Shown here: one piece after another, positions 45,182-48,106 of the stretch
Layout of the letters: every line of letters starts with the position of its first letter
How positions within the stretch are numbered: the first letter of the stretch is position 1
Assembly: GCA_945877765.1 (NCBI GenBank)
Contig: CAMDWQ010000004.1
Coordinates: 44,558-108,557, forward strand
Length of the DNA stretch: 64,000 nucleotides
Reading direction: 5' to 3'
DNA from: Candidatus Omnitrophota bacterium
Lineage (GTDB): Bacteria; Omnitrophota; Gorgyraeia; 2-02-FULL-51-18
The notes under the pieces: model-generated
What the model saw: only the letters and a program-made list of their open reading frames with translations
What the model was told of the DNA's origin: nothing
Database searches by the model: none
Program-made: the position numbers and the translations under genes

Positions 45182-48106
45182 CTACTTCTTAACCAAACCC
45201 AAATTTACATCGGTGAGAGTAATAGGTTCCGCGGAAAGATCAATTTTAATAACCTTGGCCAAAGAATAGCCTGCGGGTGTCGTCGTCACGTCGACCGACA
45301 GCTCATAAGAGCCGCTGGGCAGATTTTCAAAAAGAAACCACCCGTCTTTATCCGTAAGACTTGACTTGCCGCCAAACATTACCCCAGCACCCGCAAGCGG
45401 ATTTTCGGTAGCATCCATTCTATCGTTTTGATTTTCATCAAGATACAAACGCCCGGTGATCACGCGCACTGCCTCTAGTGGAAAGTTTTGTTCAAATCGA
45501 ATTCCCTCAAATACTACAATTTTTTTGGAGGGAATCCCCGTGGGAAGATAACCATCCGCCAGAGAAGATAAATCCAGTGAGACCGTATGTTCTCCGGCAA
45601 TAACCGTAGAGAAAGAGTAAACGCCCAATGAATTAGTCCTTGCGATTAAGCCATCTTCCAGCTTCACTCGAACCCTCTGCACCCCCTTATCGGTCAAGTC
45701 ATATTTGCCATTCATATTTAAGTCATTAAAAATAATGCCGGTAATTTGAGAGCGGGGCGTCACACCAAAATCCACACGCCGAGTGACTCCTTGCTCAATT
45801 GAAACTTCCTGGTTTGACGATGTCGTCGGCGCATAACCATAGGGAATTTTTGAAATATCAAGCGACAAAGTAGTTTGTTTTCCGCTGACAGACTTTAGCT
45901 GATAAAAACCCTGCTTATCCGTGGCGGCATGCTTTTCATCCGTGGTTTGGATCATGATTCCTTCCAAGCCTGCCTCTCCCGCCTGCCGCACCCCATCGCC
46001 GTTTACATCCTTAAAAACATAGCCTTCGAACGAACCCACCGCGCTCCACTGATACTTTGTATCGTAGAGATACCTCACCCCTGTTAAAAACTGATAATCC
46101 ACACGGGGAGCCGTTTGGCTCAAATTCTCAACCACATAATTATTAAAACTTCCCCTCAAAAATATTTCATTTCCCTGGTAGCGTCGATAATAAAGCCCTC
46201 CCGAAATTTCCGTGGTGTCAAACCCCTGCATACCACTGTTGCTGGACTCCGTGCCTTGTTCGTCCCGAATTCTTAAATTAAGATCATAATAAAGAGGGGT
46301 CTCATAGATTTGTCCCTGCCGAGAAAAATTATACGTCAAAGCCGTGGAGCTTGACGAGTCAGGAACATTATATTCATTTATAAAATTAAATTCTTCAGCA
46401 ATTGAAAAATTGATGCCCCAAAAAATTTCCGTCTGATAGCCAACCACAAATGAATCATTGGTATAATCCCCTGAAGAATTTTCCAACGACTGATTCAAAC
46501 TATTTTGATAGCGAATGGAAGCGCCTCCTCGATGATTCAACAAAACAACACTCTGGTTAAATTGGGCTCCATAGCTTCTTGAGCGTGAAGGCCCTAGACG
46601 CGCCGTATCATCAATGGTCTGGTAATCGAGGGTCACATTCGATGTTTGCCAGGGAGAATAGGCGAGTCCTAATTGTGTGTGTGTGTTGTACTCGTCTGGT
46701 TTTTCGGGATTAGGGATTAAACGATCACGAAAAATATCCAGCGAACCTGACAGCGTTAGATTTTCGAAAGGATCTGCGGTGACCTCAAGCAGGTTGCCCA
46801 ATTCGCCTTGCCCGGCGGACGCTCCTATCAATGATTGAAAATGTTTGTTGATGTCTCTAAACTCATCACGGACCCTGAGCTTCCCCGTATCAAAAATAAC
46901 CGTATGACGGTTACCAAAATGACGACTGTCGTATCCGATCTCCGGCGAAAAAAGAAAATGACCCATTTTTATATCCGCGCGAGTCCCCATCCCCCTATTG
47001 TTAAGATCTGCAGCTCTGTCTGTTCCTGACGCAACGAAATAGCCCGTTTTAAATTTTGCATTCTCGTTCAGCTTATAATCCGCCACCGCACCACGAAGAT
47101 AGGAGTTGCTCGTTCTTTTACTCACGATGCCAGGAGACAGCGTACCAATAATACCGGACTGCTCTCTGCCATAAAAACCACTCACGGTGAGCTTATCTTC
47201 GTCGTCCCAATGACGCAAAGCAACACCGCGGATCCTGCCTCCCGAAAAAGCCATCAATCCTGATGACACTTGCGAGTCCCCGCCCGCAATGTCAAAATTG
47301 GTCAAGCGGCCAATTTTGGCATCCTGCAAGTAGACTTGGGCATCGGTCAGCAGAAATTTATCCCGGTCTTTCTGCTGGCTCACATGAGAGGAAAGCGCCC
47401 CATACGGCGTGTCGCCTTCTAGGCTTGTGGTCTGATAAAAATTGACATTCGAGCGTTGGGCCACACGATATTTTTCACCGGTGTAGGAGGCATCCTGGGT
47501 CGCGTAATAGCCTATTCTAAAAGGTCTTGATTTTTCCACCGCCTCAAACTGTCTTGTCTGTTCCACGGAAGGGAAATATTTTTGGGGGATTACCAGAATC
47601 TGAAAAGTGCTCCGCCCTGAAGCGGTCCAGATATGTAAGAAAGTCTCTCCGATGCCTACACCCGATATTCCCAACGCCTCGGGAGCTAGCGTTTCAATCG
47701 TTACCCTATTATCTTCAGTGGCCACAAATTTAACGACAGGTTCTTTCAAGCGGACAATAAGAGATTGATTCAGTTCAAGCCTAATCGTTTTTTCGGTGGT
47801 AGCCAAAACTTCCAATGTGCGGTTAATGGTGGGTGCGCTGGGAGGACCGCTTTCCACTCGCGGCGGCACGCTTCTCAGGAGTGCCGAAGAAAAACCTTGG
47901 TCAAGAGCATCTTTCTTTTTAATACCAGAAGAATTTGCTTTTTCCCATTTTGGACTTAGGGTATAAAAAGAAGTGTCGGCTGGGTAGGCCAGGGATCCGC
48001 TAGAACATAAAAAAATAAGAAAAAAAAAGGTCGCTTTTTTGGATCCGGCCTTACAAAGCAGTAAGACTCTTTTCTTCAACAATGGTTTTACCTTTACCCA
48101 AATCAT
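45182..48106 (-). CDS. Outer-membrane protein: CpaC/RcpA-type 'pilus formation N-terminal' domain + large beta-barrel + three C-terminal SdrD-B/Cna-B-type repeats (candidate atypical usher/assembly platform)
   Basis: Signal-like N-terminus. IRLELNQSLIVRLKEPVVKFVATEDNRVTIETLAPEALGISGVGIGETFLHIW...FQILV fits the CpaC-N pattern. Y/G-rich alternating barrel region. Three repeats of the G.V..D.N.DG..D..E.G..GV.V........TD..G.Y.F..L..G.Y.V......GY type. Confidence 0.5.
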   Translation of the reverse strand: MIWVKVKPLLKKRVLLLCKAGSKKATFFFLIFLCSSGSLAYPADTSFYTLSPKWEKANSSGIKKKDALDQGFSSALLRSVPPRVESGPPSAPTINRTLEVLATTEKTIRLELNQSLIVRLKEPVVKFVATEDNRVTIETLAPEALGISGVGIGETFLHIWTASGRSTFQILVIPQKYFPSVEQTRQFEAVEKSRPFRIGYYATQDASYTGEKYRVAQRSNVNFYQTTSLEGDTPYGALSSHVSQQKDRDKFLLTDAQVYLQDAKIGRLTNFDIAGGDSQVSSGLMAFSGGRIRGVALRHWDDEDKLTVSGFYGREQSGIIGTLSPGIVSKRTSNSYLRGAVADYKLNENAKFKTGYFVASGTDRAADLNNRGMGTRADIKMGHFLFSPEIGYDSRHFGNRHTVIFDTGKLRVRDEFRDINKHFQSLIGASAGQGELGNLLEVTADPFENLTLSGSLDIFRDRLIPNPEKPDEYNTHTQLGLAYSPWQTSNVTLDYQTIDDTARLGPSRSRSYGAQFNQSVVLLNHRGGASIRYQNSLNQSLENSSGDYTNDSFVVGYQTEIFWGINFSIAEEFNFINEYNVPDSSSSTALTYNFSRQGQIYETPLYYDLNLRIRDEQGTESSNSGMQGFDTTEISGGLYYRRYQGNEIFLRGSFNNYVVENLSQTAPRVDYQFLTGVRYLYDTKYQWSAVGSFEGYVFKDVNGDGVRQAGEAGLEGIMIQTTDEKHAATDKQGFYQLKSVSGKQTTLSLDISKIPYGYAPTTSSNQEVSIEQGVTRRVDFGVTPRSQITGIIFNDLNMNGKYDLTDKGVQRVRVKLEDGLIARTNSLGVYSFSTVIAGEHTVSLDLSSLADGYLPTGIPSKKIVVFEGIRFEQNFPLEAVRVITGRLYLDENQNDRMDATENPLAGAGVMFGGKSSLTDKDGWFLFENLPSGSYELSVDVTTTPAGYSLAKVIKIDLSAEPITLTDVNLGLVKK

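Follow-up and report, generated by a model that had tools for sequence, protein, structure and literature searches.

A stretch of 64,000 nucleotides from the Candidatus Omnitrophota contig CAMDWQ010000004.1 (assembly GCA_945877765.1, positions 44,558 to 108,557), hereafter the window, carries on its minus strand a gene for a predicted outer-membrane protein of 974 residues, which we refer to as p974. Directly upstream lies the gene of a periplasmic chaperone candidate (p294), preceded by genes for the pilin-like secreted proteins p242, p232 and p475, and downstream two convergent genes encode the small secreted proteins p184 and p123. On the basis of its domain architecture, predicted barrel topology, fold and gene neighborhood we consider it rather likely that p974 is the outer-membrane assembly or secretion platform, functionally the usher, of a chaperone-usher-like fiber system in Omnitrophota-type bacteria. 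The features of the locus are collected in Table 1.

Table 1. Features of the p974 locus in window coordinates, with the basis of each assignment.
Feature	Position	Strand	Basis
p974 gene, 974-aa usher-like outer-membrane protein	45182..48106	-	Open reading frame translation; identical public gene calls
p974 signal peptide region, about residues 1-40 (...KKATFFFLIFLCSSGSLA followed by YPAD)	47987..48106	-	Read from sequence
p974 periplasmic N-domain, residues 94-173, PF13629 T2SS-T3SS_pil_N type, as in CpaC/CpaI of Tad systems	47588..47827	-	Pfam; AlphaFold2
p974 predicted 26-strand transmembrane beta-barrel, residues 197-682, without inserted plug	46061..47518	-	AlphaFold2
p974 C-terminal domain 1, residues 690-784, SdrD_B/CarboxypepD_reg beta-sandwich, DVNGDG loop	45755..46039	-	Pfam; AlphaFold2
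p974 C-terminal domain 2, residues 786-879, SdrD_B-type, DLNMNG loop	45470..45751	-	Pfam; AlphaFold2
p974 C-terminal domain 3, residues 881-973, SdrD_B/CarboxypepD_reg/SpaA-type, DENQND loop	45188..45466	-	Pfam; AlphaFold2
p294 gene, periplasmic two-domain PapD/WxLIP-like chaperone candidate, 268 aa from likely start	48051..48857	-	Model; context
Terminator-like hairpin, 18-bp stem and T-run, between p242 and chaperone genes	48992..49032	-	Sequence
p242 gene, pilin-like subunit, 214 aa	49044..49688	-	Signal peptide; N-terminal APVSATVVA strand; C-terminal ...VYTSTYTLTLTA
p232 gene, pilin-like subunit, 222 aa, p242 paralogue, ending ...RGTYNATVTFTITE	50072..50740 (to 50770)	-	Homology
p475 gene, 464 aa, three tandem pilin-like domains	50778..52172 (to 52205)	-	Repeats; NCBIfam
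p184 gene, single-domain pilin-like, 174 aa, convergent; homologous to p475 repeats and p232	44644..45168 (from 44614)	+	hhalign
p123 gene, small secreted protein, 109 aa, convergent	44239..44568 (from 44197)	+	Conserved motifs
p909 gene, conserved secreted protein of about 873-937 aa	52195..54816 (to 54924)	-	C-terminus ...FRVSLTGEF, typical outer-membrane-protein signature
PilZ-domain protein gene (cyclic di-GMP receptor type)	54936..56873 (to 56882)	-	Pfam; synteny with cluster
1118-aa protein gene	40501-43857	-	No Pfam match; 45-71% identity across loci
Flanking sugar-related gene	35950-38736	+	Part of these genes also syntenic in related loci
Flanking sugar-related genes	56888-58195, 58930-60930, 60935-63962	-	Part of these genes also syntenic in related loci

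Gene structure and domain architecture of p974

The p974 open reading frame had been singled out in an earlier reading of the DNA made without database searches (the sequence-only reading), and the same 974-residue product is present in public gene calls (ENA contig ERZ27280191 k141_2203796 and NCBI GCA_947444795.1), the ENA copy being 100% identical across all 974 residues. The gene is the last in its direction of transcription, with two convergent genes (44197-45168) beyond it, which agrees with its proposed position at the end of the operon. The true start of p974 may be an in-frame TTG codon at 48082 or 48079, and a good signal peptide is retained with either. The overlap with the p294 gene, given earlier as about 56 nt and taken as a sign of coupling, amounts to 56 nt if counted from the ATG at 48106 and to 32 or 29 nt if counted from the TTG codons at 48082 or 48079, respectively. 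Because these TTG starts are possible and the junctions between barrel and chaperone genes in related loci consist of 4-nt overlaps or very short gaps, the 56-nt figure is uncertain; the tight coupling of the two genes is conserved.

The structure of p974 was modeled with AlphaFold2 using a 31-sequence alignment, which gave a mean predicted local distance difference test score (pLDDT) of 83 and values of 85-96 in most barrel blocks. The model consists of a beta-structured N-domain, 26 consecutive antiparallel strands (residues 197-682) and three beta-sandwich domains (residues 690-973), with a short helix at residues 181-191 connecting the N-domain to the barrel. The linker that follows the signal peptide, up to about residue 93, was modeled with low confidence (pLDDT <50 at residues 35-88). 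The N-domain matched Pfam family PF13629 at residues 105-170 with a score of 25 bits against a gathering score of 23. This borderline score does not reflect a chance match, since PF13629 was present in all 16 family members tested, with a best E of 1.4e-9. A role in docking would fit this domain because PF13629 domains of Tad systems have been modeled as binding partner proteins via beta-strand addition (bioRxiv 10.1101/2025.11.06.686991); a literature search on PF13629 gave nothing useful beyond that paper.

No Pfam or NCBIfam match was found for residues ~190-690, which comprise the modeled barrel. On the periplasmic side of the barrel, where the N-terminus lies, each of the 12 turns has a length of 2-5 residues, while the loops on the opposite side reach up to 18 residues; in the model this is the usual pattern of outer-membrane proteins. 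The barrel contains zero cysteine and is enriched in Gly, Ser, Tyr, Asn and Asp. Given the even number of strands, both sets of flanking domains are predicted to be periplasmic, and the C-terminal domains most likely start on the same side of the membrane as the N-domain. The largest insertion in the barrel is the 18-residue loop 317-334, which was modeled at a pLDDT of 33 yet is well conserved, and strands 6 and 7 are joined by a turn of only 5 residues. The column identity of loops L4, L7, L8, L9 and L12 is 0.67-0.85 versus a mean of 0.62, equal to or above that of the strands, and the most conserved 12-mer of the protein, LDIFRDRLIPNP, extends into L8. Since exposed loops are normally variable, we infer from the alignment that these five loops line or gate the barrel lumen.

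The C-terminal part gave three Pfam matches to SdrD_B (E 3.8e-20, about residues 690-960), overlapping with matches to CarboxypepD_reg and SpaA, and each of the three domains has a DxNxDG-type calcium-loop motif, at residues 700, 795 and 890. With a column identity of 0.52-0.70 these domains are among the best-conserved parts of p974. The NCBIfam model of SdrD scored 32.6 bits against a cut-off of 2500, with the B-repeat part alone matching. An LPXTG sorting signal was not found in p974, the C-terminus of which reads ...NLGLVKK. The CpaC/RcpA-type N-domain, the large central beta-barrel and the three SdrD-B/Cna-B repeats that the sequence-only reading had assigned to p974 were thus all recovered, the barrel with a confident prediction as a transmembrane structure. 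The SdrD-B repeats, noted there as typical of Gram-positive adhesins, do not make p974 an adhesin of Gram-positive type, since they are predicted to begin on the periplasmic side, where the C-terminal domains of ushers are located.

Chaperone-like and pilin-like neighbors and their conservation

The p294 protein, also proposed earlier to be a chaperone, has a signal peptide, is without a membrane helix and ends in a beta-strand. Its model, obtained with an alignment of database homologues, has a pLDDT of 93. The best fold match was WxLIP (E 5e-14), followed by more than 35 chains of chaperone-usher chaperones at E 1e-10 to 1e-8 (CfaA, Caf1M, FimC, CupB2, CsuC, EcpB, PapD, SafB and DraB), in line with the earlier assignment. 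The best PDB sequence found with the p294 sequence profile was EcpB (E 0.0096), aligned across the F1-G1 strand region; comparison of the chaperone profile with FimC alone by hhalign was not significant. Two motifs were recognized by eye in p294: 'N..(9-10)..YLEDW', which resembles the PapD-family 'N...YLxQSW' seen in FimC, and 'GRIGALFF', which resembles the PapD-family motif 'RIKLFYRP'. Because WxLIP is proposed to insert a strand that completes the beta-sandwich of its partner WxL (PMC10599100) and chaperone-usher chaperones likewise donate a strand, the close fold relatives of p294 would all work by strand donation.

The proteins p232, p242 and p184 and the three repeats of p475 belong to one superfamily, with an hhalign probability of 99% between p232 and p184. 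The C-termini of the small proteins follow the pattern AG-x-Y-x-x-x-x-T-F/Y-T and look like the C-terminal strand of FimA, FimF and FimG. NCBIfam family NF058581, the truncated immunoglobulin (Ig) domain at the C-terminus of Pam pilins, matched 8 of 10 p475 orthologues with a best E of 2.7e-11, below the curated cut-off; the p475 protein of the window scored 30.4 bits where the cut-off is 55, and the p232 family gave no NCBIfam match. A 2026 preprint reports cryo-electron microscopy structures of Pam pilins and concludes that assembly proceeds by donor-strand exchange; Pam pili were described there as exclusive to the Candidate Phyla Radiation (CPR) and devoid of envelope-spanning machinery, with chaperones that carry a C-terminal membrane helix (bioRxiv 10.64898/2026.03.03.709456). 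Judged by these profile matches, the p475 and p184 proteins of Omnitrophota may be Pam pilin relatives outside the CPR, and the subunits seem to resemble the Pam pilins of the CPR more than classical fimbrial subunits. The sequence-only reading had labeled the neighbors of p974 as SCPU genes. This label was not confirmed, as SCPU (PF05229) was not found by Pfam searches of the pilin-like neighbors and only weak matches to DUF4402 occurred, in 9 of 24 members with a best E of 0.01; a literature search on DUF4402 returned nothing. In p232 of the window a six-glycine run (TEGGGGGGVFEG) occupies the place of the conserved N-terminal 'PxxxSAxV' strand of its orthologues, and this copy may lack a normal donor strand.

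Three further elements accompany the pilin-like genes. The very strong hairpin between the p242 and chaperone genes recalls the stem-loops that follow the major-pilin genes in the fim and pap operons; a promoter-like site is present after it at 48935-48907, and this arrangement could raise the amount of subunit relative to chaperone and platform. Proteins of the p123 family have a mature size of ~55-85 aa, with SKSxTVRVSCTI near the N-terminus and a C-terminal ...K(L/V)YS(I/V)TAL (...YSITAL in p123). At this size, too small for a full Ig domain, p123 might be a cap, terminator or anchor subunit. In the closer loci the p909 gene immediately precedes the p475 gene; it was not seen in distant loci, and its product gave no Pfam, NCBIfam or PDB sequence match. 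Its membership in the system is uncertain; it may be a second outer-membrane component or unrelated.

The gene order is conserved. Across 19 related loci we observed p475, preceded in part by p909, then one to three copies of p232/p242, then p294 and p974, followed by the convergent p184 and p123. The succession of pilin-like, chaperone-like and barrel genes also holds in four more distant loci. The most distant loci, with barrel proteins 22-30% identical to p974, retain a minimal module of small secreted proteins, a 268-340-aa protein and the barrel protein. In 21 of 23 related loci the barrel gene is immediately preceded by the gene of a confirmed p294 homologue, and in the other two by a gene of similar size (279 and 340 aa). 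In the main set the homologue was identified by blastp in 19 of 19 loci, and two loci identical to the window (L030 and L031) have the same 268-aa gene; for L021, L022 and L023 the upstream genes, of 279, 340 and 272 aa, respectively, were compared by size only, and the one of L023 occurs in the standard order. The chaperone profile matched more than 380 clusters at 90% identity.

The barrel protein also belongs to a sizable family. HMMER matched 340 proteins at E <=1e-3, 213 of them at E <=1e-30, corresponding to ~340 clusters at 50% identity. The arrangement of PF13629, barrel and SdrD_B was found in 9 of 9 matches sampled for Pfam analysis, with one to three SdrD_B domains and sometimes an N-terminal extension with TPR repeats. 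Many distant members (P0030, P0163, P0172, many representatives, and the protein encoded at 2515-5364 of L005) have 60-280 additional N-terminal residues before PF13629; TPR repeats occur in some of these extensions, which recalls export porins composed of TPR repeats and a barrel. Database names for the family are 'hypothetical protein' or 'SdrD B-like domain-containing protein', none of them informative. The genomes of the related loci are labeled Omnitrophota, 'uncultured Planctomycetia' (automated labels of metagenome-assembled genomes) and in one case Eisenbacteria. Loci L006-L019 are mostly labeled 'uncultured Planctomycetia' while their nearest named relatives are Candidatus Omnitrophota, and the labels of these metagenome-assembled genomes look inconsistent. 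Omnitrophota are ultra-small bacteria, many of which are thought to be host-dependent. The principal genomic survey of the phylum covers type IV pili, Tad pili and giant adhesins only, the word 'usher' being absent (PMC10066038), and a full-text literature search for Omnitrophota together with chaperone-usher found nothing.

The flanks of the cluster contain genes of other types. The PilZ-domain protein has its PilZ domain at residues 6-124, in addition to a long coiled-coil-like region, and in loci L006 and L010 a PilZ gene separates the chaperone gene from the pilin-like genes. This arrangement suggests that the system is under cyclic di-GMP control, with the PilZ protein as a possible regulator. 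Genes around the cluster encode a GH94-like phosphorylase, a sugar ATP-binding cassette (ABC) transporter and two TIM-barrel proteins of GH2 type, one of which has a TPR repeat; they represent either a glycan-use neighborhood beside the fiber genes or a functional link. The gene for the 1118-aa protein is always found just beyond the fiber cluster, followed by gltX; its product is without a signal peptide and looks cytoplasmic, and it was left out of the system.

Usher-like fold, proposed mechanism and competing explanations

To examine the fold of p974 the model was compared to PDB structures using Foldseek. The FimD and PapC ushers ranked first, with E 3.7e-19 to 1e-13 over 770-940 aligned columns, followed by isolated usher pores, among which 3ohn gave the highest TM-score of the list (0.51). 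Subsequent matches were SdrD, B. anthracis TIE and the SpaA pilin, which cover the C-terminal domains of p974. TonB-dependent transporters and OprD porins were also matched, at E 1e-9 to 1e-7.

Several results weigh against identifying p974 as an usher. The Foldseek TM-scores are low (0.29-0.51), and since other large barrels match at E 1e-9 to 1e-7, the usher signal of the model partly reflects a large barrel with beta-sandwich domains in general. The model has 26 strands instead of the 24 of ushers, and no plug. By Pfam, the Usher family PF00577, PapC_N and PapC_C were not found in p974 (E <=0.1) or in 16 family members (E <=10), and a profile search of PDB sequences at E <=1 found no usher. 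Comparison of the full p974 profile with an alignment of seven ushers (FimD, Caf1A, MrkC, CstB, PefC, FaeD and a Pantoea usher) by hhalign gave a probability of 1.4%, the sole aligned segment pairing C-terminal domain 1 of p974 with that of FimD, which is suggestive in position and not significant; with a profile of the barrel region against FimD alone the probability was 0.55%. The HMMER profile of N-domain and barrel retrieved only the 340 family proteins at E <=1e-3 from 1.84 billion representatives; ushers and CpaC secretins were not reached, because detectable ones would have added far more matches. The pilin assignment of the neighbors, furthermore, rests on sub-threshold profile matches and motifs, and searches of PDB sequences with family profiles of p232, p184 and p475 gave no match.

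These results modify two claims of the sequence-only reading. The domain combination of p974, described there as unlike that of ushers and secretins, is indeed absent from canonical members of both, but the fold and domain order are usher-like. Similarly, the gene context argues for fiber assembly, as had been proposed, while instead of a new kind of assembly or anchoring platform p974 is better called a divergent or analogous usher. Full-length similarity to a known family was observed at the level of fold only (TM 0.29-0.51) and not at the level of sequence.

From the gene order and predicted folds we infer a mechanism, each functional step of which, the fiber itself included, is hypothetical. 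After Sec-dependent export of p242, p232, the three-domain p475, p184 and perhaps p123, the soluble two-domain chaperone p294 would cap each subunit in the periplasm by strand donation (donor-strand complementation). The chaperone-subunit complexes would dock at the periplasmic PF13629 N-domain of p974, and at the periplasmic entrance of the 26-strand barrel the subunits would polymerize through donor-strand exchange, the fiber leaving the cell through the barrel. The three calcium-loop domains, predicted to lie in the periplasm as well, would act as the C-terminal domains of ushers do, providing a second binding site that holds the base of the fiber. As there is no plug, gating would probably be accomplished by the conserved long loops L4, L7, L8, L9 and L12 or by a terminal domain.

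A more far-reaching proposal is that the system encodes donor-strand-exchange pili of a lineage of its own, which would correspond in diderm bacteria to the Pam pili of the CPR, with a translocator that is independent of FimD and PapC or has diverged from these beyond recognition. We regard this as possible, though doubtful. The translocator would in that case combine a docking domain of Tad-secretin type, a plug-less, loop-gated 26-strand barrel and three calcium-binding Cna-B/SdrD-B domains; Pam-type pilins would then not be confined to the CPR, and usher-like pores would have arisen or diversified outside the Proteobacteria-centered PF00577 family.

The competing explanations agree less well with the size of the barrel and with the conserved context of chaperone and pilin genes than does a role of p974 as usher-like platform. 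It is unlikely that p974 is a surface adhesin resembling inverse autotransporters, in which the barrel would serve as anchor and the three SdrD-B/Cna-B domains as surface stalk, with accessory or unrelated neighbors. Domains of the SdrD_B, SpaA and CarboxypepD_reg types are typical of adhesin stalks, the C-terminal part of the model matches SdrD, TIE and SpaA structures, and with a periplasmic domain at the N-terminus, a barrel and Ig-like domains at the C-terminus the protein formally has the layout of intimin and invasin. However, the barrel has 26 strands rather than 12 and is followed by just three small domains and no ligand-binding tip domain. These domains are well conserved (0.52-0.70), whereas exposed adhesin repeats usually vary. 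The best fold matches were ushers, with no intimin or invasin in the top 50 Foldseek matches, and an adhesin would leave the conserved coupling to PapD-like chaperone and pilin-like genes unexplained.

The synteny with a PilZ gene, the GH2-like and GH94-like genes and sugar ABC transporter in the flanks, and the TPR extension preceding PF13629 in many distant members bring to mind a cyclic di-GMP-regulated porin for export of exopolysaccharide or another glycan, analogous to BcsC, PgaA, AlgE/AlgK or PelB. We consider this improbable, since no gene for a glycosyltransferase or synthase, Wza/Wzc or a polymerase was found in the conserved core and the known exopolysaccharide porins have 16-18 strands. 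Neither a PilZ gene nor a constant set of GH genes was seen in distant loci, the minimal module of which consists of small secreted proteins, a chaperone-like protein and the barrel, and upstream of L022 the genes are unrelated ones for a mannosidase, a sugar ABC transporter and LacI. With its chaperone fold and its domains resembling Pam pilins, the locus speaks for a protein fiber instead.

It is very improbable that p974 is a general large-barrel protein, such as an LptD-like protein, transporter or porin, that occurs beside unrelated secreted proteins by chance. LptD does have 26 strands, one of 16 family members gave a very weak LptD_2 match (E 0.051), and TonB-dependent transporters and OprD match the model, but Pfam detected neither an OstA/LptD N-domain or LptD C-domain nor a TonB-receptor plug or TonB box, gene order is kept down to 22% identity, and the translational coupling to the chaperone gene is conserved. 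The least probable explanation is a Tad or type IV pilus component, either a non-canonical secretin or a secretin partner, which would accord with the occurrence of PF13629 in CpaC secretins and CpaI and with two distant loci having a T2SSE ATPase, or a secretin and ATPase, within 10 kb, whereas the Secretin domain PF00263 was not found in p974 or 16 members, the model is a closed single-chain barrel and not multimeric, the window contains no Tad, type IV pilus or secretin genes and most related loci no Tad or type IV pilus genes, and L005 encodes a normal secretin separately.

Comparison with known assembly systems

If p974 is indeed usher-like, the essential parts of the usher mechanism could be told apart from the exchangeable ones by comparison with a pore that has another N-domain and calcium-binding C-terminal domains and lacks a plug. 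The locus may link diderm chaperone-usher systems, the membrane-anchored Pam system of the CPR and the WxLIP proteins of Firmicutes. For Omnitrophota it would represent a third, unannotated fiber system and thereby a candidate attachment organelle.

The systems that resemble p974 by single domains differ from it in most other respects. MSCRAMM adhesins of the SdrD type share the three tandem SdrD_B domains with DxNxDG loops; they also possess an A-domain, an LPXTG signal and a long repeat stalk, all lacking in p974, in which the domains follow a barrel and are most likely periplasmic. With the CpaC/RcpA secretins and CpaI, p974 has the periplasmic PF13629 N-domain in common, but not the secretin domain, the multimeric channel or the Tad gene context of CpaC/RcpA.

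The likeness to pilus systems extends to the complete locus. Pam pili (PamA/PamB pilins, PamC/PamD chaperones) share with it a PapD/WxLIP-like chaperone encoded in the operon and donor-strand exchange as the mechanism proposed for both, and may also share the pilin C-domain, the model of which matched p475 orthologues below cut-off. Whereas Pam chaperones are membrane-anchored, p294 is without such a helix and its gene is coupled to that of an outer-membrane barrel, in a presumably diderm host. The archaic (sigma) systems, including Csu, CupE and Myxococcus Mcu, are likewise encoded in short operons, in which a single chaperone and a single outer-membrane platform accompany several small pilins; CsuC was one of the fold matches of p294, and the C-terminal motif of the pilins is similar by eye. 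These systems employ SCPU pilins and a PF00577 usher, in contrast to the p974 locus, which gave no SCPU match and has a platform that is not PF00577.

Chaperone-usher pili are a textbook pathway in which, to our knowledge, every characterized case uses a PF00577 usher. There is no detectable sequence homology between p974 and the FimD and PapC ushers. PapC_N is replaced by PF13629 in p974, the two PapC_C-type domains by three SdrD_B-type domains with calcium-loop motifs, and the 24 strands with a plug between strands 6 and 7 by 26 predicted strands without a plug. Nevertheless, p974 conforms to the overall fold of ushers, though at low TM-scores, sharing the order of a periplasmic beta-domain, a large single-chain barrel and C-terminal beta-sandwiches. 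The operon context conforms as well, as the p974 gene follows immediately on that of a PapD-like chaperone and has in its vicinity several genes for pilin-like proteins, which by sequence are candidate donor-strand pilins. The system thus combines the logic and fold of the usher pathway with a different set of domains, and is probably an undescribed variant of chaperone-usher-like assembly.

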